Assembly (NCBI GenBank): GCA_965238005.1
Contig: OZ250165.1
Span: 3,680,001-3,744,000, forward strand
Direction: 5' to 3'
Length of the DNA stretch: 64,000 nt
Origin: Longimicrobiales bacterium
GTDB lineage: Bacteria; Gemmatimonadota; Gemmatimonadetes; Longimicrobiales; Gaopeijiaceae
Made by a program: the position numbers and the translations under genes. Below the pieces are notes generated by a model. The model was not told the origin of the DNA, made no database searches, and saw only the letters and a program-made list of their open reading frames with translations. This document shows positions 702 through 12,891 of the stretch, piece by piece. Every line of letters begins with the position of its first letter. Within the stretch, counting starts at the first letter, position 1.

Positions 702-774
<73 letters not shown>

Positions 775-1030: not shown

Positions 1031-2218
1031 GTGATCGAGACTGACAGCCAGAGGCAGAAGACCAGCGCCGGTGCCTAGGAGACCGCGGTCCAGGATCGCT
1101 ACGCCGACGCCGCACAGGCCCAGGCCGCGGCCCTCTGTTGTCCCGTGGACTACGATTCGAAGTACCTGGAGGTCATCCCGGACGAGGTCATCGAACGGGA
1201 CTACGGCTGCGGCGATCCCAGCCGCTACCTCAGGGAGGGTGAGACCGTCCTCGACCTGGGCAGCGGCACGGGCAAGATCTGTTTCATCGCGTCGCAAGTG
1301 GTGGGAGAAACGGGCAAGGTCATCGGCGTCGACATGACCCCCGAGATGCTGGAGGTCGCCCGTCGAAACGCGCCTGTCGTCGCTGAGCGGATCGGCTACG
1401 CCAACGTGGAGTTCCGGCGGGGCCGCATCCAGGATCTCGCCCTCGATCTGGAGCGGCTGGAGGAGCGCCTGGGCGAGCATCCGGTGTCGACCACCGAGGG
1501 CTACCTCGAGCTCGAGCGGATGACGTCGGACCTTCGGCTTCTGGAGCCCCTGGTCCCCGACGAGTCGGTCGATGTCGTCGTCTCGAACTGCGTCCTGAAC
1601 CTCGTGGCGACGGATCAGAAGCAGAACCTCTTCAGGGAGATCCACCGCATTCTGAGGACGGGCGGACGGGCGGTCATCTCGGACATCGTCTCCGACGAGC
1701 CGGTCCCCGAGGAGCTCCAGATGGACGCCGAGCTCTGGAGCGGGTGTGTCTCGGGGGCCCTCATCGAGGAGGGATTCCTCGAGGCGTTCGAAGAGGTCGG
1801 CTTCTACGGGATCCGTGTCCGGGAGCGCCAGGCCGAGCCCTGGCAGACGGTGAACGGAATCGAGTTCCGCTCGGTGACCGTGGAGGCTTTCAAGGGCAAG
1901 GAGGGCCCCTGCTGGGAGAGGATGCAGGCGGTGGTCTACCGGGGCCCCTTCAAGGAAGTGCTCGACGATGACGATCATCGCATGGAGCGAGGGAAGCGAT
2001 ACGCGGTGTGCGACAAGACCTTCCGCATCTACGGCCGGGAGCCGTACCGGGAGCACTTCGACTTCATCGAGCCGTTGGTCGAGATCCCGTTGGAAGAGGC
2101 GGAGCCCTTCGACTGCACCCGCACGACGGCGCGGCATCCCCGGGAGTCCAAGGGGATGGACTACGACGTGACCACCGACCCTCAGGGGGCTTGCTGTGAG
2201 CCAGGCGACTGCTGCTGA
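1031..2218 (+). CDS. ArsM/AS3MT-like SAM-dependent methyltransferase (in-frame TAG at 1076-1078; longest open part 1145-2218)
   Basis: Motifs CCPVDY, YGCGDP, LDLGSGTG, GVDMT, VVVSNCVLNL and WSGCVSGA, plus a C-terminal CCEPGDCC. GGAG precedes GTG 1031. The segment AVQDRY...LCCP lies upstream of the ORF-track start. Confidence 0.8.
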
Positions 2219-3179
2219 CGCTAAATCCGGTGGCGCCGTGAGCTCGAATGCCGCGCAGGCCTCGGGCGCCACGGCGGCGCCGAGCTTGCAGACGAACGCA
2301 TCCCGGTCGGAGACCGAGAGCGCGGCTCCCGCGGTCGACCTCCGGTCTTTGGACACGCTGTGGTTCCAGGTGGGAGGCACCCTCTGCAACCTCACGTGCA
2401 GCCACTGTTTCATCTCCTGCTCCCCCACGAACCACACCCACGAGCTCTTGAGCCTGGAGACGGTTCGCTCGTACCTCGACGAGGCCGTGGAGTTGGGCGT
2501 GAAGGAGTACTACTTCACGGGGGGAGAGCCCTTTATCAACCGTGACATGGAGGCCATCCTCGCCGCGACGCTCGAGGTCGGTCCCGCTACGGTCCTGACC
2601 AACGGCCTGCTCCTCGACGGGGAACGGTGCGGTCGGCTGGCCGCGTTGGCCGACGCTTCCGAGTACTCCCTCGATCTGCGCATCTCCCTCGATGGCTACA
2701 CAGCCGAGTCGAACGATCCCATTCGGGGCGAGGGGACGTTCGAGCGGATCCTCGTGGGCGCCCTCAACGCGGCGGAGGCCGGGCTCAACCCGGTCGTCAC
2801 CGTCACCGACGTCCACGAGGGCAACTCCAGCGACCAGGGGCGCACCCGCTTCCTGGAGCTCCTGGCCGGGCGAGGCATCAGACGGCCCAGGCTCAAGGTC
2901 CTGCCGGTCTTCCGCCTCGGAGCGGAGGCCGAGCGGTCCGGCCCGTACGAGAGCTGGCAGAAGCTCTCGGCGACGGACACTCCAGAGGACGGGTGGAGCC
3001 ACCTTCAGTGCTCCTCGTGTCGCATGGTCACCGACCAGGGCGTCTGGGTATGCCCCATCCTGGTAAACGAGCCCTCGGGTCGGATGGGGGAGCGCCTGGC
3101 CGACACCCTCACCGACTTTCCCCTGGACCACCAGGCGTGCTGGACCTGCCACGTCTACGGGGTGAGCTGCCGGACATGA
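2196..3179 (+). CDS. Radical SAM protein with C-terminal auxiliary Cys motifs
   Basis: CNLTCSHC (CxxxCxxC), TGGEP, LTNG, SLDG, and C-terminal CSSC..CP..CWTC. The start may instead be GTG 2238. Confidence 0.9.
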   Translation: MSQATAADAKSGGAVSSNAAQASGATAAPSLQTNASRSETESAAPAVDLRSLDTLWFQVGGTLCNLTCSHCFISCSPTNHTHELLSLETVRSYLDEAVELGVKEYYFTGGEPFINRDMEAILAATLEVGPATVLTNGLLLDGERCGRLAALADASEYSLDLRISLDGYTAESNDPIRGEGTFERILVGALNAAEAGLNPVVTVTDVHEGNSSDQGRTRFLELLAGRGIRRPRLKVLPVFRLGAEAERSGPYESWQKLSATDTPEDGWSHLQCSSCRMVTDQGVWVCPILVNEPSGRMGERLADTLTDFPLDHQACWTCHVYGVSCRT

Positions 3180-4129
3180 CCAACGCCCACAAGGGAATGG
3201 CCACGTGGGGTGAGCGTCTGGTTCCCCTGGAGGACTTCCGAGTCGCGACCACGCGCTTCGGTCGGACCCTCTCCGAGGAGGGCCGTCGGTCTGCCGTGGA
3301 GGAGTACCTGACCTCGGCCGACGATGCGACCCCCGTAGAGGGCTCATACGGGCGGATCGCCGTCTTCGGAGGGGTCTACAACAACCACTTCGGCCTCCAA
3401 GCCCTCCTGGAGGACGCCCGCCGACGTGGGGCCGAGGCCGTGTATTGTCTCGGGGATCTGGGAGGCTTCGGGCCGAACCCGGAAGCCATCTGGCCCCTCC
3501 TGGCATCAGGCGATGTGCGGTCCATCCAGGGGAACTACGAGCAGTCCCTGGCCGCCGACCGGGGGGACTGCAACTGCGGATACACCGACCCGCGGGACAA
3601 CCACTTCGCCGCCCTTTCGTACGGCTACACCGAGCGTCGCTGCTCTCCCGAGTTCAAAGCGTACATGGGGGAGCTCCCCAACAGGCGCCGGGTCGCCGTC
3701 GGGGAGGCAGAGCTGCTCCTCGTCCACGGGTCTCCAAGGCAGGTCAACGAGTTCCTCTTCGCGTCGACCTCGTCCACGCCCTACCTGGAGATATTGTGTG
3801 ACGAGAACAGGTGCGACGGGATTCTCTGCACCCACACAGGTCTCCAGTGGCACCGGCGTCTCCCTTCGGGTCGGGACGTGGTGAACGTGGGCGTCATCGG
3901 ACGACCGGCCAACGACGGCCGAACCAACGTCCGGTACGCCGTCCTCTCGGCGGAGAACGGCAGACTCCACGTCGAGCTCGTCCCGCTCGAGTACGATCAC
4001 GAGTCCCTGGCGGCCGAGATGCGCCGAGAGGAGCTTCCGGAGGAGTTCGTCGAGACGATCCTCAGCGGATGGTGGACCACCTGCCTCGAGATTCTGCCGG
4101 CCAAGGAGCGGGCGGCCTCGAGGTTTTAG
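3176..4129 (+). CDS. Calcineurin-like metallophosphoesterase-fold protein with degenerate metal motifs
   Basis: ATGA overlap with the radical SAM stop. Motifs GGVYNN, CLGDLGGFGP, GNYE, CNCGY, HGSP, THTG and NVGVIG. Confidence 0.85.
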   Translation: MTNAHKGMATWGERLVPLEDFRVATTRFGRTLSEEGRRSAVEEYLTSADDATPVEGSYGRIAVFGGVYNNHFGLQALLEDARRRGAEAVYCLGDLGGFGPNPEAIWPLLASGDVRSIQGNYEQSLAADRGDCNCGYTDPRDNHFAALSYGYTERRCSPEFKAYMGELPNRRRVAVGEAELLLVHGSPRQVNEFLFASTSSTPYLEILCDENRCDGILCTHTGLQWHRRLPSGRDVVNVGVIGRPANDGRTNVRYAVLSAENGRLHVELVPLEYDHESLAAEMRREELPEEFVETILSGWWTTCLEILPAKERAASRF

Positions 4130-4140
4130 GACGTACGTAT

Positions 4141-5391
4141 ATGACGGCATCGAAGCTACGTATCGCCATCCTGGGGAGCGGTCCCACCGGCCTGGAGGCC
4201 GCCCTGGCCGCGGCCGTCGCCGGATACCCATTCACGGTTTACGAGGCGGCGGCGCAGGCGGCGGCCCACGTGCGCGACTGGGGCCACGTCCGGCTCTTCA
4301 CCTCCTGGGACCTCAACGTCTCGGCCCGGATGCGCCAGGCGCTGGACGAGGCCGGCGAGTCTGTCCCCGAAGGGACCGAGTACCCTACGGGAGCGGAGCT
4401 GGTAGAGAAGGCACTCGATCCCGTCAGCGCTCTCTCGGCCCCCTCGGGGCACATCCAGTACAGGGTTCGCGTAGAGCGCCTGGGCCGCACCGGCCTGCTC
4501 AAGCATGAGGAGATCGGCACCGGCGAGCGCGGCCGACACGCCTTCCGACTCCTCCTCCGGGACGACTCCGGCCGGGAGTGGACCGAGGAGGCCGACGTGG
4601 TGATCGACTGCACCGGCAACACCGAGCCCAACGCCCTGGGCGACGGAGGCATCCCCGCCCCAGGTGAAGGGCGCGCATCGGAGGCCATCAGCCATGAGAT
4701 TCCGGACGTATCGGGCAACCCGGAGACCTGGGCGGGACGCACGGTGCTCGTGGTGGGCGCTGGGCACTCGGCCACGACTGCCGTCGTGGACCTCGTCAAG
4801 CTGGCCGAAAAGTACCCCGGGACCGAAGTCGCCTGGGCCATGCGACACGAAGTCCCGGAGCCCGATGTGGACGATCCGCTGGAGGAGCGGGCCGCTCTTC
4901 TCGAGAAGGGAGCCGCGCTGGCCGCCCATCCCCCATCGTGCCTCCGGGTTCGCACCGGGGTCGTGGTCGACGCCTTGACGGTGGGGGAGGGCCGGACCGT
5001 GAGAGAGGCCACCGCACCTGCCACGCCCGGCGGGTCTCCCCGAGTCGGGGCCAAACTGCGGACCCTCGACGGCCAGGTGGAGTGCCTCGACATCGACCGT
5101 ATCCTGGCGCTCACGGGGAAGGTCGGAGATCACCTCCTGTACCGGCAGCTCCAGGTGCACGAGTGCTGGGCGACGCAGGGTCCCATGAAGCTCGCGGCCG
5201 CCCTTCTGGCCCAAAGCGGCGGTAGCGGGGACTGCCTGGATCAGACAAGCCTGGGAGCCGAGACCCTCGTGCACCCCGAGCCCGGGATCTTCATCCTCGG
5301 AATCAAATCCTACGGACGTCGGAGCGACTTCCTGATGAGGGTGGGCTGGGAGCAGGTGGACGAGGTCTTCGGGCTACTGGCCGGACGCTGA
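4141..5391 (+). CDS. FAD/NAD(P)-dependent oxidoreductase, ArsO-like flavoprotein monooxygenase
   Basis: GSGPTG FAD site, WGHVRLFTSW, DCTG, GAGHSA NAD(P) site, LQVHECWAT, and GIKSYGR near the C-terminus. Confidence 0.8.
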   Translation: MTASKLRIAILGSGPTGLEAALAAAVAGYPFTVYEAAAQAAAHVRDWGHVRLFTSWDLNVSARMRQALDEAGESVPEGTEYPTGAELVEKALDPVSALSAPSGHIQYRVRVERLGRTGLLKHEEIGTGERGRHAFRLLLRDDSGREWTEEADVVIDCTGNTEPNALGDGGIPAPGEGRASEAISHEIPDVSGNPETWAGRTVLVVGAGHSATTAVVDLVKLAEKYPGTEVAWAMRHEVPEPDVDDPLEERAALLEKGAALAAHPPSCLRVRTGVVVDALTVGEGRTVREATAPATPGGSPRVGAKLRTLDGQVECLDIDRILALTGKVGDHLLYRQLQVHECWATQGPMKLAAALLAQSGGSGDCLDQTSLGAETLVHPEPGIFILGIKSYGRRSDFLMRVGWEQVDEVFGLLAGR

Positions 5392-5756: not shown

Positions 5757-7076
5757 ATGATGCGAAGACACGCTGTTCCCCCCGCAGCCGTCGCATTCGC
5801 ACTGGCATTCCTGGGTTGCGAGCAGACGGCCACAGGTCCCGATCTCCTGCGAGATCTCGGACCGTCATTGGCCATCGAGGGAGTGTCCGAGTTCCCCACG
5901 ACCTCGGTTCTCGGGGGCACGTGCATCGACTCCGGATCGCCCGTGTCGTGGTGGCCCGGAGAGGACGACTTCAACGACGTGGTCGGCGAGAATCATATCG
6001 TCCGGGATAACGGAGTTGAGTTCACGGCGGGGGTCGTCGGTCAGGGATTCAGGATCAGCCCGTTCACCTCGGTGGGTCAGTCGTTCATGGAGATCGACGA
6101 CTCACCCGATCTCCAGCCCACGAACTTCACGATCGACCTGTGGGCTCAACGCTTCGGCCAGGGTCAGAACTTTGACGAATTCGGCAACATACTCGTCCAG
6201 AAGGCGATCGACGACGATGATCTGAGCGCCGGAGTGTCGTACCTCATCTCTTGGAATGACGTTAACAAAATCGTGGCGTTGCTCTCCTTTTCTGTTGGCG
6301 CTCCGGTCATACTCGAGGGGACCTCGGCGCATGGGTTTGCCGACCCAGATGCCGACCCTGCCGACCCGTTCGTTCACGTGGCCCTCACGTACGACGGCAC
6401 CACGGCCAGGCTCTACGTCAACGGCACCGTCGAAGACTACGACGCACCCGGGCGTTCCGTCGCCTACGGTGAAGGGTCGATGGTCGTCGGAGCGACCTTT
6501 GAGGCCGCTCGGACCAGATTTCCAAGATCCCCGGACGGCATCATCGACGAATTGGAGATCTTCGACTACGCTCTCACCGACGATCAGATCCGGGAGATCT
6601 ACGAGACGGAGGGCGCCTGCAAGCTACGATACGAGCCGTCCCCCGAGGTTGACATCGACATCAAGCCGGGCAGCGAAGACAACCCGATCAACCTCGGCGC
6701 CGGTGGCGGAAAGAGCGGCAAGGGCAAGGGCAAGGGCAAGGGCAAGGGGAAGGGCAACGCCAACATCCCGGTCGCCATTCTGACCACCAACGACTTTGAC
6801 GCGTCCACGGTCGACGTGTCCACCGTGACGCTGGGCGACGACGACGACGACACGGTCGGCGTGATCGTCAAGAAGAACGACACGCTCCAGGCGGCGCTCG
6901 AGGACGTGGACGACGACGGCGACCTTGATCTGCTGATGCACTTCAGCATCGCCGATCTGGTGGCCAGCGAAGATCTCGACGAGTCCACCACCCAGCTCTG
7001 TGTGAACGGGTCGAGCCTCGACCCCGATGCCATCCATGGATGCGACATGGTGGCCATCGTCGGGGGCGGCGCGTAG
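5757..7076 (+). CDS. Lipoprotein with LamG/concanavalin-like domain, GK repeat and Asp-rich Ca-binding C-terminal domain
   Basis: Lipobox FLGC; LamG-like SWWPGE...FTIDLW...HVALTYDGTTARLYVNG...GIIDELEIFDYALT; then IDIKPGS and EDVDDDGDLD. Confidence 0.8.
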   Translation: MMRRHAVPPAAVAFALAFLGCEQTATGPDLLRDLGPSLAIEGVSEFPTTSVLGGTCIDSGSPVSWWPGEDDFNDVVGENHIVRDNGVEFTAGVVGQGFRISPFTSVGQSFMEIDDSPDLQPTNFTIDLWAQRFGQGQNFDEFGNILVQKAIDDDDLSAGVSYLISWNDVNKIVALLSFSVGAPVILEGTSAHGFADPDADPADPFVHVALTYDGTTARLYVNGTVEDYDAPGRSVAYGEGSMVVGATFEAARTRFPRSPDGIIDELEIFDYALTDDQIREIYETEGACKLRYEPSPEVDIDIKPGSEDNPINLGAGGGKSGKGKGKGKGKGKGNANIPVAILTTNDFDASTVDVSTVTLGDDDDDTVGVIVKKNDTLQAALEDVDDDGDLDLLMHFSIADLVASEDLDESTTQLCVNGSSLDPDAIHGCDMVAIVGGGA

Positions 7077-7589
7077 TAGCTCCAGATACAACGAAGCCCC
7101 CCCCCCCACCGTATCGGGGCGGTCTCCCAGCGGAGGCCGCCCCATCGTTTTCTCGGATCCGCCGAACCGCTAGCTACCGGTCGTTCTCCAAGACTGGATC
7201 CACCACGAGACAATCTTTTCCAATCTCAAGAGGACGTCATTCCGTCCAACTCCCAAACGTACTGCGGGGTAATCCGCGGACACCGCTCAGGAGTCCCAGA
7301 GGGTAAAAAGGCGACTCATTGACGTTGGCAACACCATCGGATAAGAAGAAATGAAGAAATCGCGCGGAGATTCCAGTGTTTCCGCGGGGTGTCGGTCCGT
7401 GAGGCAGATGCCGCTCACGCGGCTCCTACAAAGGGAGTAGGTCGGAGAGAAATACCCGCAAGAAAGTTGTTGCGGGGCCCGAAGACCGTTGGTAACGTTT
7501 AGATAGGGAGTATGCCTCCGCTCCCCGGGTCGGCGGGGTACGTCGGCCAAGAAAAACACTTTTCGACCTCAGACTCTCCAGGAGGCGAC

Positions 7590-9281
7590 ATGCCCCGGAA
7601 GTACCGTCTTCAAGCCGTTTCCATCGTACTCGCGCTGGCGGTATTGGGGTGTGAGCAGAGTGTTACAGATGTCGTTGATTGGACGGCTGAGGCGAACCAT
7701 CCCTCTATCACGGCACTGTTGTCGCCGCTCGCGACAGGTACCGGGTTCATAGATGCGACCTTCGCAACAGACTTTAACCCTGTCGATGGAGACTATCTCT
7801 CGGGCCTTATCACAGTCGGTGGAACTTTCACTGTAGCGGCAGGTGACGTCGTCTACGTGGACGGATCAGTGGAAATCGTGGCTGCAGATGTGCTCATCGC
7901 CGGTACGCTTGACGCGAGCGGTGCGGGACCGGCCGGCGGCGCGGTGCCTTCGCTCCTCGCGGCGGGGAAGCCGGGATTCGGGACGGGCGGCGGTGCCGGC
8001 TCTGCGAGCAACTTCTTCGAAGGCCCGGGAGGCGGCGGGGGGGGATACGGCGGGGCAGGCGGTGGAGGAGGGACGACCCCTAGCACCGGGGCCCAAGCGG
8101 CCGGCGGCGCATCATACGGAGCCACGAATCCCCCCGGCATCCTCATGGGCTCGGGCGGCGGCAGCGCCAGCAGCAACTTCTTCAACCCCGGTGGAGCGGG
8201 TGGAGATGGCGGTGGCGCGATCACGATCGTCGCGACGGACATATCGGTGACCGGGATCGGAGTCATCTCGGTATCGGGCGCCGACGGCCTGGGGAGCACC
8301 GGCGGCGGACTGCCGGTGGGCGGCGGTGGTGGTGGATCGGGCGGCGGAATCTGGTTGGACGGTGCCCTGGACATCTCCGGGTCGCTCCTCGCGGTTGGAG
8401 GCGTGGGAGGGCCCGTAACGAGCAACCAACCTGGCGTCGCGACGGCAGGCGGAGGGGGCGGGGGCGGCCGGATCAAGCTCTCGGGCTGCGGCGTCATCGA
8501 CGCTGGTGCGATCGTCCTGTCCACCGGCGGCAGCCCGGGCGGGAACTCCGTCGGAAATGGCGTGAGTCTTCCCCAGCCCGGCGCGGACGGCACCACGCCC
8601 ACCGACCAAGACGATCCGCTCGAGGCCTGCGGTACGACTTCGACTTCCGCATCTTTCCTGATCATCGACGAGGAGAGCATCGGCAAAGGCAGCCCGCCGC
8701 ACTCCTTCGACGAGATGGACGTGAGCGAACACATCGCCGACATCGGGGTGCGGACCCAGCTCCCCTTCTTTGAGAGCAACGTTGGTAGTACGATCACCCT
8801 GCATACGGGCGAAGTCGGCGATGAGGGATGGTTCGCGTTAAAGACGATCCCGGACTCCTGGAATGCGGCCGGCCCGACCCCTGACGGGCTGCGGAATTAT
8901 GTGGGCAATCCGGTCGGTCCAGGCTTGGGCTCTGGGGGTGATCCAGAGGCCCTGCTGGACAAGATTCCGAACGTCACTCCCTTGCGGGCGATGGGGCTCA
9001 AGCAGTTGGTGGGGCAGCGGGTCTGCGCCGTGGTCTACAAGAGCGACGTCTCCATCAACTATGACCCACTGGACGGGAGTCTCAAGGGAGACAACCTGGG
9101 AACGGTGGCGTTTGAGGTCCTATCCGTGACAAGGTTGGACGGGTTCTCCTCGTCGTCCCTGCCGCAGGCAGAAATCGAGATCTTGGACGCCAACGACGTC
9201 TGCGAGGGGTCGCTGACTCTCTTCACGGATGCTCCTGAGCCGATCTCCTCCTCGGAACCCTTTGACGTGGACCCGTCCTAG
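7590..9281 (+). CDS. Glycine-rich lipoprotein with a C-terminal domain of unknown function
   Basis: AGGAGG RBS before ATG 7590, lipobox VLGC, repeated GGGGG/GSGGG motifs, and a globular C-terminal region of about 200 aa. Confidence 0.75.
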   Translation: MPRKYRLQAVSIVLALAVLGCEQSVTDVVDWTAEANHPSITALLSPLATGTGFIDATFATDFNPVDGDYLSGLITVGGTFTVAAGDVVYVDGSVEIVAADVLIAGTLDASGAGPAGGAVPSLLAAGKPGFGTGGGAGSASNFFEGPGGGGGGYGGAGGGGGTTPSTGAQAAGGASYGATNPPGILMGSGGGSASSNFFNPGGAGGDGGGAITIVATDISVTGIGVISVSGADGLGSTGGGLPVGGGGGGSGGGIWLDGALDISGSLLAVGGVGGPVTSNQPGVATAGGGGGGGRIKLSGCGVIDAGAIVLSTGGSPGGNSVGNGVSLPQPGADGTTPTDQDDPLEACGTTSTSASFLIIDEESIGKGSPPHSFDEMDVSEHIADIGVRTQLPFFESNVGSTITLHTGEVGDEGWFALKTIPDSWNAAGPTPDGLRNYVGNPVGPGLGSGGDPEALLDKIPNVTPLRAMGLKQLVGQRVCAVVYKSDVSINYDPLDGSLKGDNLGTVAFEVLSVTRLDGFSSSSLPQAEIEILDANDVCEGSLTLFTDAPEPISSSEPFDVDPS

Positions 9282-11880: not shown

Positions 11881-12891
11881 TTACTCCGACTTCTCCTCCC
11901 CGTCCTCTTCGGCCTCGGCATCTGCCTCGGCGGCGGGCTCCTCCTCGGCTTCCGCCTCGGGGGCTTCCTCTTCGGTAGCCTCGGGCTCCGACTCCTCTTC
12001 GGCGGCGGGCTCTTCCTCGGCTTCCGCCTTGGGGGCCTCCTCTTCGGCAGCTTCGGCCTCGGGCTCCGACTCCTCTTCGGCGGCGGGCTCTTCCTCGGCT
12101 TCCGCCTCGGGGGCTTCCTCTTCGGCAGCCTCGGCCTCGGGCTCCGACTCCTCCTCGGCGGCCGGCTCCTCCTCGGACTCGGCTGCGGGGGCTTCCTCTT
12201 CGGCAGCCTCGGCCTCGGGCTCCGACTCCTCCTCGGCGGCCGGCTCCTCCTCGGACTCGGCTGCGGGGGCTTCCTCTTCGGCAGCTTCGGCCTCGGGCTC
12301 CGACTCCTCTTCGGCGGCGGGCTCTTCCTCGGCTTCCGCCGCGGGGGCCTCCTCTTCGGTAGCCTCGGGCTCCGACTCCTCTTCGGCGGCGGGCTCCTCC
12401 TCGGCTTCCGCCTCGGGAGCCTCCTCTTCGGCAGCTTCGGCCTCGGGTGCGTCGTCTTCAGCAGCCTCGACGTCGGCCTCGGCGGCGTCGAGCTCGGCAG
12501 CCGCCGCAGTCGCGGCCTCCTGGGCCACCTCGGCTGCCGCCGCCGCCTCGCGGGCCTTCGCCTCTGCTTTCCGGCGCTCCGCAAGGGCAGCGGTCTTCAG
12601 AGCCTTCACCTCCTCCGGATCGAGCTCGCCGAGAGCCACGGAAGTATCACCACCCTTGCGGGCCTTGTTCAGCAGCGTTCGGACGGTGTCGGTGGGCTCG
12701 GCACCCTTGGCGATCCACGCGTCGGCCTTCTCGACGTCCACCACGAGGCGGGCCGGGCTCGTCAGAGGCTTGTAGTACCCAAGCGTCTCGACGAAACGGC
12801 CATCTCGCGGAGCTGCGGAGTCGGCCACCACGATGCGGAAGTGGGCCTGCTTCTTACGGCCCATGCGACGAAGTCGGATTTTTACGGCCAT
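11881..12891 (-). CDS. rpsP: 30S ribosomal protein S16 with a very long acidic repeat tail
   Basis: [45 protein letters not shown], followed by about 250 aa rich in E/A/P. Confidence 0.96.
11925..12445 (-). repeat. Coding tandem repeat of about 72-78 nt ([14 protein letters not shown][EA]xEEEAPxAEx), about 6.5 copies
   Basis: Visible in both DNA and translation; recurring ggctccgactcctc units. Confidence 0.9.

Follow-up and report, generated by a model that had tools for sequence, protein, structure and literature searches.

A stretch of 64,000 nucleotides from a Longimicrobiales bacterium (assembly GCA_965238005.1, contig OZ250165.1, positions 3,680,001 to 3,744,000; hereafter the window) carries four co-directional open reading frames at 1031–5391, among them an enzyme of the radical S-adenosylmethionine (SAM) type, from an unnamed family that we call rSAM-X. 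The module is real, widely conserved and uncharacterised, and counts as a variant within the ArsM–ArsS kind, not as a system of a new kind. On balance, we lean towards rSAM-X replacing ArsS, adenosylating a trivalent methylarsenical for an unlinked glycosyltransferase cassette. An earlier reading of this DNA (the original prediction) had proposed an organoarsenic module here, and its description of the locus was accurate: the four genes and their orientation, the ATGA overlap of the second and third (3176–3179), the 11-nucleotide gap before the fourth (4130–4140), every cysteine motif that it named, and the absence of an adjacent arsR, acr3 or arsC.

1031..2218, + strand: arsM, long arsenite methyltransferase of the AS3MT/CmArsM type, 395 codons, GTG start at 1031, TAG at 1076–1078
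2238..3179, + strand: rSAM-X, radical SAM enzyme (family unnamed), start uncertain between the GTG codons at 2196 and 2238, core conserved from 2340 onwards
3176..4129, + strand: MPE, protein of the metallophosphoesterase fold (PF12850) in which one metal site is lost and a CxC is invariant
4141..5391, + strand: flavoprotein, an FAD/NAD(P)H protein related to ars-operon (ArsV-like) flavoproteins

Relation of rSAM-X to ArsS and ArsL

Radical SAM enzymes named as forming C–As bonds in a passage of a 2025 article (PMC12159101) are ArsS and ArsL. rSAM-X matches PF04055 and reaches no NCBIfam cut-off. Against the ArsS model (TIGR04167) it scores 50.4 bits, where the cut-off is 300 and true ArsS genes score 398–443; its best match is the Rv1681 family (NF049973), at 111 against 380 bits. 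No ArsL model appears among the 25 best NCBIfam matches shown, and the C terminus of rSAM-X, CWTCHVYGVSCRT, lacks the C-terminal RCCLKC tail that a portion of 10.1101/2024.02.01.577332 gives for the ArsL of arsinothricin synthesis.

These model scores agree with the original prediction that the enzyme is neither ArsS nor ArsL, although its further suggestion that the protein falls short of full length does not stand. A profile of 36 rSAM-X homologues aligned with five ArsS proteins by HHalign at 99.3% probability over 277 columns (22% identity), from the N-terminal to the C-terminal cysteines, with five C-terminal cysteines in register. The CxxxCxxC motif and four C-terminal cysteines are invariant among the 36 homologues, and over a wider set of loci (below) CxxxCxxC and C272, C286, C315 and C318 are kept in 80 of 80 and C325 in 79 of 79; the second cysteine of the CSSC motif is replaced by serine in 9 of 80. 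The C-terminal domain is twitch-like, with the four invariant cysteines and a terminal one, so that rSAM-X has the CxxxCxxC core and cysteine-rich C-terminal domain of the ArsS type at a score below the family cut-off. Judged by sequence, rSAM-X is a full-length enzyme with the build of ArsS, and is not an ArsS orthologue. Its predicted structure (predicted local distance difference test score 94) has SkfB and BlsE as the nearest solved folds, both generic radical SAM matches, and an Atlas search returned unnamed radical SAM clusters. No paper on the family was listed by a literature search that had subscription journals largely outside it.

Partners, companion genes and distribution

We found 137 relatives, the closest titled ones being Longimicrobiales (Gemmatimonadota) assemblies. 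Counts over loci use the best 80 of the 137, some of which are ended by contig edges; neighbour gene calls were empty for two (L051 and L066). The original prediction proposed co-occurrence in other genomes as a check, and the genes do recur together: rSAM-X is accompanied by MPE in 78 of the 80 loci, by the flavoprotein in 66 and by the long ArsM in 31. Of 31 longer rSAM-X homologues, 20 carry a fused methyltransferase, 6 the flavoprotein and 1 the MPE, and 4 show the radical SAM domain alone; the sole methyltransferase fusion scanned (P0137) is ArsM-like. In the genomes of 50 of the 80 loci, the long ArsM occurs in 20, every time within the rSAM-X locus, and 26 of the other 30 have a PRK11873-type match elsewhere. 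DUF2064 is adjacent to rSAM-X in 20 of the 80 loci, and importers lie upstream or nearby in a minority (a Pst-like ATP-binding cassette (ABC) importer upstream in 10, a PhnS-like ABC transporter in 5 and a phosphate-type porin in 4). Among those clustered neighbours that were identified in the 80 loci, no family of regulators or efflux genes recurs. In Thermoanaerobaculia, a type III polyketide synthase, a ferrochelatase and other genes are often nearby; we set these down to inherited synteny, as the Gemmatimonadota loci are without them.

Several loci depart from this layout. In four (L010–L013), rSAM-X and MPE go with a porin of the phosphate type and an ABC importer that resembles PhnS, and the flavoprotein is absent; L011 has a second MPE copy. 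A second rSAM-X copy in genome G007 (L144:7866-8837) has no MPE and lies amid transposase-like and conjugation-type genes. A distant member in Roseomonas neighbours TIGR04282, DUF547, a phosphonate importer (PhnD/E) and an MPE.

The long ArsM scores best on the arsinothricin ArsM model NF040538 (357 bits against a cut-off of 500), and reaches no cut-off of other named ArsM models either (PRK11873, 212 against 263; another, 130 against 400), all from the residues after its premature stop only. CmArsM structures match it at E 1e-38, with three cysteines lining up with those of CmArsM, and its cysteines are kept across loci (N-terminal CC 29/29, GCG 29/29, SNC 30/30, SGC 30/30, tail CC 31/31). 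The aligned cysteines are presumably the arsenic-binding set, and the protein is predicted to have both this set and the SAM-binding fold.

The sequence of MPE departs from the original prediction of hydrolysis. An active binuclear metallophosphoesterase binds its metals through seven ligands (D-x-H, D, N, H, H-x-H). In MPE, motif I is G-x-Y instead of D-x-H in 78 of 78 loci and motif V is H-x-G instead of H-x-H in 77 of 77; one metal site thereby loses three ligands (G66, Y68 and G222 stand in their places), and D94, N120, H184 and H220 of the other are kept. We rejected hydrolysis on these grounds, as the three ligands are replaced in all loci covered. A CxC motif (C132/C134) is invariant in 78 of 78 loci and aligns with C74/C76 of a Hymenobacter MPE located in an arsR–acr3–arsC operon. 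Car1 of Rufibacter tibetensis, as a passage of PMC12124457 describes it, is an As(V) reductase of the metallophosphoesterase fold in which Cys74 and Cys76 are essential. Because one metal site has been lost and the CxC matching that of Car1 kept, MPE would reduce rather than hydrolyse, and is probably an As(V) reductase of the Car1 type. The two share the fold and a CxC following GNY(D/E), lined up through the Hymenobacter ars-operon homologue; MPE differs in being about 32% identical to that proxy, in its three replaced ligands, in an extra conserved C-terminal cysteine and in being tied to a radical SAM gene rather than to acr3 or arsC. A fold search matched SapH (template modelling score about 0.78) and otherwise generic phosphoesterase folds.

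The flavoprotein is 34–36% identical, over its whole length, to proteins encoded between marR–arsN and arsD, or between arsR and arsK, which bears out the proposed link to the ars flavoproteins. No ArsO- or ArsV-named NCBIfam model matched it at E 0.01, and its ars-operon homologues carry no such name. According to a portion of 10.1101/2021.08.12.456183, arsV encodes a flavin monooxygenase that oxidises trivalent monomethylarsenic (MAs(III)), sits behind marR genes and confers MAs(III) resistance; the context of the homologues suggests that they are ArsV. In contrast to these homologues, the flavoprotein has no cysteine-rich tail, has a clade-specific cysteine (ECW/ECY; that of ECW is kept in 61 of 61 loci) and tracks rSAM-X rather than resistance genes. 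It is a specific partner of rSAM-X, and the fusions favour a close tie, whether it acts as a guard oxidase or as an electron donor.

We compared the distributions of rSAM-X and ArsS in a phylum sample of 121 genomes (120 drawn at ≥90% completeness plus the source genome). rSAM-X occurs in 13, ArsS in 14 (13 over the cut-off) and both in none. DUF2064 is present in 42, including all 13 with rSAM-X and all 14 with ArsS, and neither enzyme occurs in the 79 without it; within the 42, zero overlap has a P of 0.0015. In the other set, the 50 rSAM-X genomes taken from the 80 loci, every genome has DUF2064, ArsS passes the cut-off in 2 and an ArsS fragment occurs in 1. The exclusion is strong, not absolute, and the association with TIGR04282/TIGR04283 and ArsM that goes with ArsS extends to rSAM-X by these counts and by the 20 adjacent DUF2064 genes. 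Two loci show the enzymes in the same slot: L139 places rSAM-X and MPE within a cassette of TIGR04282, TIGR04283, TVP38 and MerA-like genes, and L173 has the same long ArsM (358 bits on NF040538) and a Pst-like transporter with ArsS in place of rSAM-X. The source genome has such a companion cassette 1.48 Mb from the module (C1:2198828-2203036; a MerA-like flavoprotein, a TVP38–DUF547 fusion and a TIGR04283–DUF2064 fusion), and no ArsS was found in it.

Partners were compared in a chosen 50 of the 121 genomes: 14 with rSAM-X and 36 others, including 14 with ArsS. A close MPE orthologue occurs in 10 of the 14 rSAM-X genomes and in none of the 36 others (0/14 ArsS genomes), and the flavoprotein in 9 of the 14 (unlinked in 8) and none of the 36. 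TIGR04169 shows the opposite pattern, over the cut-off in 10 of 14 ArsS and 0 of 14 rSAM-X genomes.

Both enzymes are missing from fifteen DUF2064 genomes. A distant rSAM-X is present in one of these, a radical SAM/SPASM–ArsM fusion in seven and an Rv1681-family enzyme in one; in the other six none was found. The fusions (about 790–850 amino acids; L153–L157, L159, L160, L164, L167 and L168) lie near DUF547, TVP38 and DUF2064 genes, and the family is a candidate for a further As–C-forming enzyme in those seven genomes. At L166:6383-10970, an Rv1681-family radical SAM gene, an Rv1680-like binding protein gene and an acyl-CoA dehydrogenase-like gene lie between DUF2064 and a TIGR04283-like gene, a context that suggests an arsenic-type role for the Rv1681 family.

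A proposed route and its alternatives

From the observed homologies, linkage, fusions and distribution we infer all steps of the module's chemistry, and we judge its role as an alternative entry to arsenosugar-type biosynthesis to have somewhat better than an even chance. ArsM, where intact, would methylate As(III) to MAs(III) or its dimethyl counterpart DMAs(III). The CxC of MPE would reduce pentavalent arsenic, in all likelihood DMAs(V) or MAs(V) that has been imported or oxidised again, to the trivalent state; speculatively, the vacated metal site could accommodate the methyl groups of DMAs(V). rSAM-X would then cleave SAM and, like ArsS, add the 5′-deoxyadenosyl radical to a trivalent methylarsenical, giving 5′-deoxy-5′-dimethylarsinoyladenosine (DDMAA) or a close analogue, and the distant TIGR04283/TIGR04282 glycosyltransferase-like cassette would complete the product. 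The flavoprotein would oxidise escaped trivalent methylarsenicals, or feed electrons from NAD(P)H to the reductase or to an iron–sulfur cluster. In the part of PMC13598754 cited here, ArsS converts DMAs(III) to DDMAA and ArsL requires prior reduction of As(V).

Two known systems frame this proposal. The ArsM–ArsS arsenosugar pathway (TIGR04167 with TIGR04282, TIGR04283 and TIGR04169) shares with the module an ArsM-linked radical SAM protein of about 300 amino acids, the C-terminal cysteine pattern, the companion genes and the gene slot. It differs in the low identity of the two enzymes, in having TIGR04169 where MPE and the flavoprotein serve as redox partners, and in that ArsS and rSAM-X hardly ever share a genome and rSAM-X is often without arsM. 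With a full-length rSAM-X standing where ArsS would stand among the known arsenosugar companion genes, the product may be an arsenosugar that is already known and only the enzyme new. The ArsL–ArsM–ArsQ arsinothricin pathway, as far as passages of PMC8552651 and 10.1101/2024.02.01.577332 describe it, resembles the module in an ArsM beside a radical SAM enzyme and in the model on which ArsM scores best; the module departs from it in the sub-threshold score of its ArsM (357 against 500), in having neither the RCCLKC tail nor an exporter, and in its twitch-type C terminus.

Several observations weigh against this reading. For rSAM-X, the Rv1681 family (111 bits) and mycofactocin (62) outscore ArsS (50), identity to ArsS is just 22%, and a tree of 38 radical SAM rows, from which the Rv1681-like row was left out, does not join the two (its deep nodes are unresolved and ArsS sits on a very long branch). 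The zero overlap has a P of 0.18 over all 121 genomes, genome relatedness inflates the exclusion statistic and two of the 50 rSAM-X genomes carry ArsS as well. The link to Car1 runs through a second-hand passage and the 32%-identical Hymenobacter proxy, not Car1 itself. Neither arsM query found a match in nine of the 14 rSAM-X genomes (96–100% complete); the long ArsM query was run on the ten without a PRK11873 match, and it matched 9 of 10 ArsS genomes tested. Three of these nine are also without MPE and flavoprotein, which is hard to square with an enzyme that depends on DMAs(III). The functions of TIGR04282 and TIGR04283 are themselves names assigned from context.

The absence of arsM from nine near-complete genomes suggests salvage of external methylarsenic, and arsM may be absent or broken because MPE would supply trivalent arsenic by reduction. 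The original prediction of a module that methylates, alkylates, hydrolyses and oxidises keeps its arsenic link and its biosynthetic rather than resistance setting, and loses its self-contained character: ArsM is optional (20 of 50 rSAM-X genomes), and the phosphoesterase-fold protein is Car1-like and lacks three ligands.

The nearest competitor, closest to the view of the original prediction, is a different, undescribed organoarsenical made by rSAM-X, MPE and the flavoprotein and entering the same glycosyltransferase cassette; examples would be that MAs(III) or As(III) is adenosylated, that an aminocarboxypropyl group is transferred, or that an oxidised or reduced derivative of DDMAA is formed. 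We regard it, with these examples, as possible but doubtful. In its favour are that ArsS genomes lack the dedicated MPE and flavoprotein, that rSAM-X is not orthologous to ArsS, that ArsM is dispensable and scores best on the arsinothricin model (357 bits), and that two genomes retain both enzymes. Yet architecture and cysteine pattern are those of ArsS, the ArsL-type tail is missing, and in L173 ArsS interchanges beside the same long ArsM, at 358 bits on the same model. A bolder version, which we hold about as doubtful, has rSAM-X, reductase and flavoprotein scavenging environmental dimethylarsinate independently of ArsM into an As–C product other than DDMAA, with four or more radical SAM families that can stand in for one another (ArsS, rSAM-X, the radical SAM/SPASM–ArsM fusion and Rv1681-like enzymes) feeding the DUF2064 cassette.

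That the triad degrades or recycles imported organoarsenicals, such as arsenosugars or DMAs, instead of building them seems improbable. The importers within the operon (Pst-like in 10 of 80 loci, PhnS-like in 5, a phosphate-type porin in 4, PhnD/E in Roseomonas) and the nine genomes without arsM would suit catabolism, but a Pst-like importer flanks the ArsS cluster of L173 too, rSAM-X is as strictly tied to DUF2064 as ArsS is, and the 20 methyltransferase fusions suit synthesis. A detoxification unit that methylates, reduces and oxidises, its radical SAM enzyme having no As–C chemistry, is less probable again: the radical SAM enzyme is the constant member of the module, no regulator or efflux family recurs among the identified clustered neighbours in the 80 loci and a separate MarR-linked arsM exists at C1:391845, even though homologues of MPE and the flavoprotein are located in ordinary ars operons, ArsV confers MAs(III) resistance in the portion of 10.1101/2021.08.12.456183 cited above and no Acr3 was found anywhere in the source genome (95.85% complete). 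Least probable of all is a substrate other than arsenic (antimony, selenium, or phosphinate or phosphite) with the arsenic genes as secondary passengers, which the phosphate- and phosphonate-type importers, the genomes with rSAM-X and DUF2064 but no detectable arsM and the Rv1681-family enzyme placed between DUF2064 and a TIGR04283-like gene might suggest, but against which stand the arsenic-linked families of all three neighbours and the long ArsM adjoining rSAM-X in 20 of the 20 genomes that have it in the set of 50.

If rSAM-X does replace ArsS, the producers that arsS-based surveys overlook would roughly equal in number those that they record in this phylum sample (13 against 14 of the 121 genomes), abundant soil Acidobacteriota being among those overlooked. 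The probable reductase could let cells use external methylated arsenic; if it passes DMAs(V) into the pathway, it would supply the missing link between arsenosugars and a methylarsenical common in the environment. If the bolder version with its several radical SAM families holds, bacterial organoarsenic production would be far wider than ArsS counts suggest.

The premature stop in arsM and other features of the source genome

Codon 16 of arsM is an in-frame TAG (1076–1078), where six of six relatives have a glutamine codon (CAG or CAA). The start region is the same in six of six close relatives, and a sequence resembling a ribosome-binding site, GGAGAG (1021–1026), is partly conserved in relatives. 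We rejected pyrrolysine or a reassigned stop: no PylS over the cut-off was found in the source genome, and TAG is a common stop there, closing 1,071 of 3,122 well-scoring called genes. For both reasons arsM is taken to be broken in this assembly and its product is probably non-functional; the copy is for that reason not the best one for study.

The TAG may be an assembly error or a recent inactivation. Clear substitution stops are rare in the source genome (2 in 187 orthologues, or 66,689 amino acids), the same orthologues containing three further stops at gaps and seven frameshift-like cases. Among close relatives, L008 has a TAG and L002 a frameshift in arsM, and L003 and L004 are without the gene. 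Lesions (stops or split alignments) affect 3 of 31 arsM, 3 of 78 MPE and 8 of 66 flavoprotein matches, and the ratio of nonsynonymous to synonymous substitution rates for arsM (0.08–0.16) is similar to that of neighbouring genes. With flavoprotein lesions about as frequent and this ratio low, selective decay of arsM was not established, and both explanations of the TAG stand.

Three other arsM-type genes occur in the source genome. Two ArsM-like genes, at C1:3644968-3644250 (− strand) and C1:1137398-1138750 (+ strand), have an in-frame TGA at the position of the last catalytic cysteine, which is probably selenocysteine in both; the genome has a tRNA-Sec. The second also has an upstream in-frame TAG. 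The third is an intact PRK11873-type arsM; together with the gene before it, for a MarR protein that carries a cysteine tail and a CC motif, it forms a separate resistance-type pair (C1:391290-392693).

The module's divergent neighbour, outside it, is a tRNA gene:

702..774, − strand: tRNA-Lys(TTT)

Of two lipoprotein-like open reading frames downstream in the window (5757–7076 and 7512–9281, + strand), one encodes a protein that has both a GK repeat and a LamG domain, and the other a glycine-rich protein without a family match. An S16-like ribosomal protein of 336 amino acids is encoded at 11881–12891 (− strand) and has a long, repetitive tail rich in glutamate and alanine. Elsewhere in the source genome, an array of 17 tRNA genes (C1:1035994-1037821) stands apart from the main tRNA set, possibly on a mobile element.

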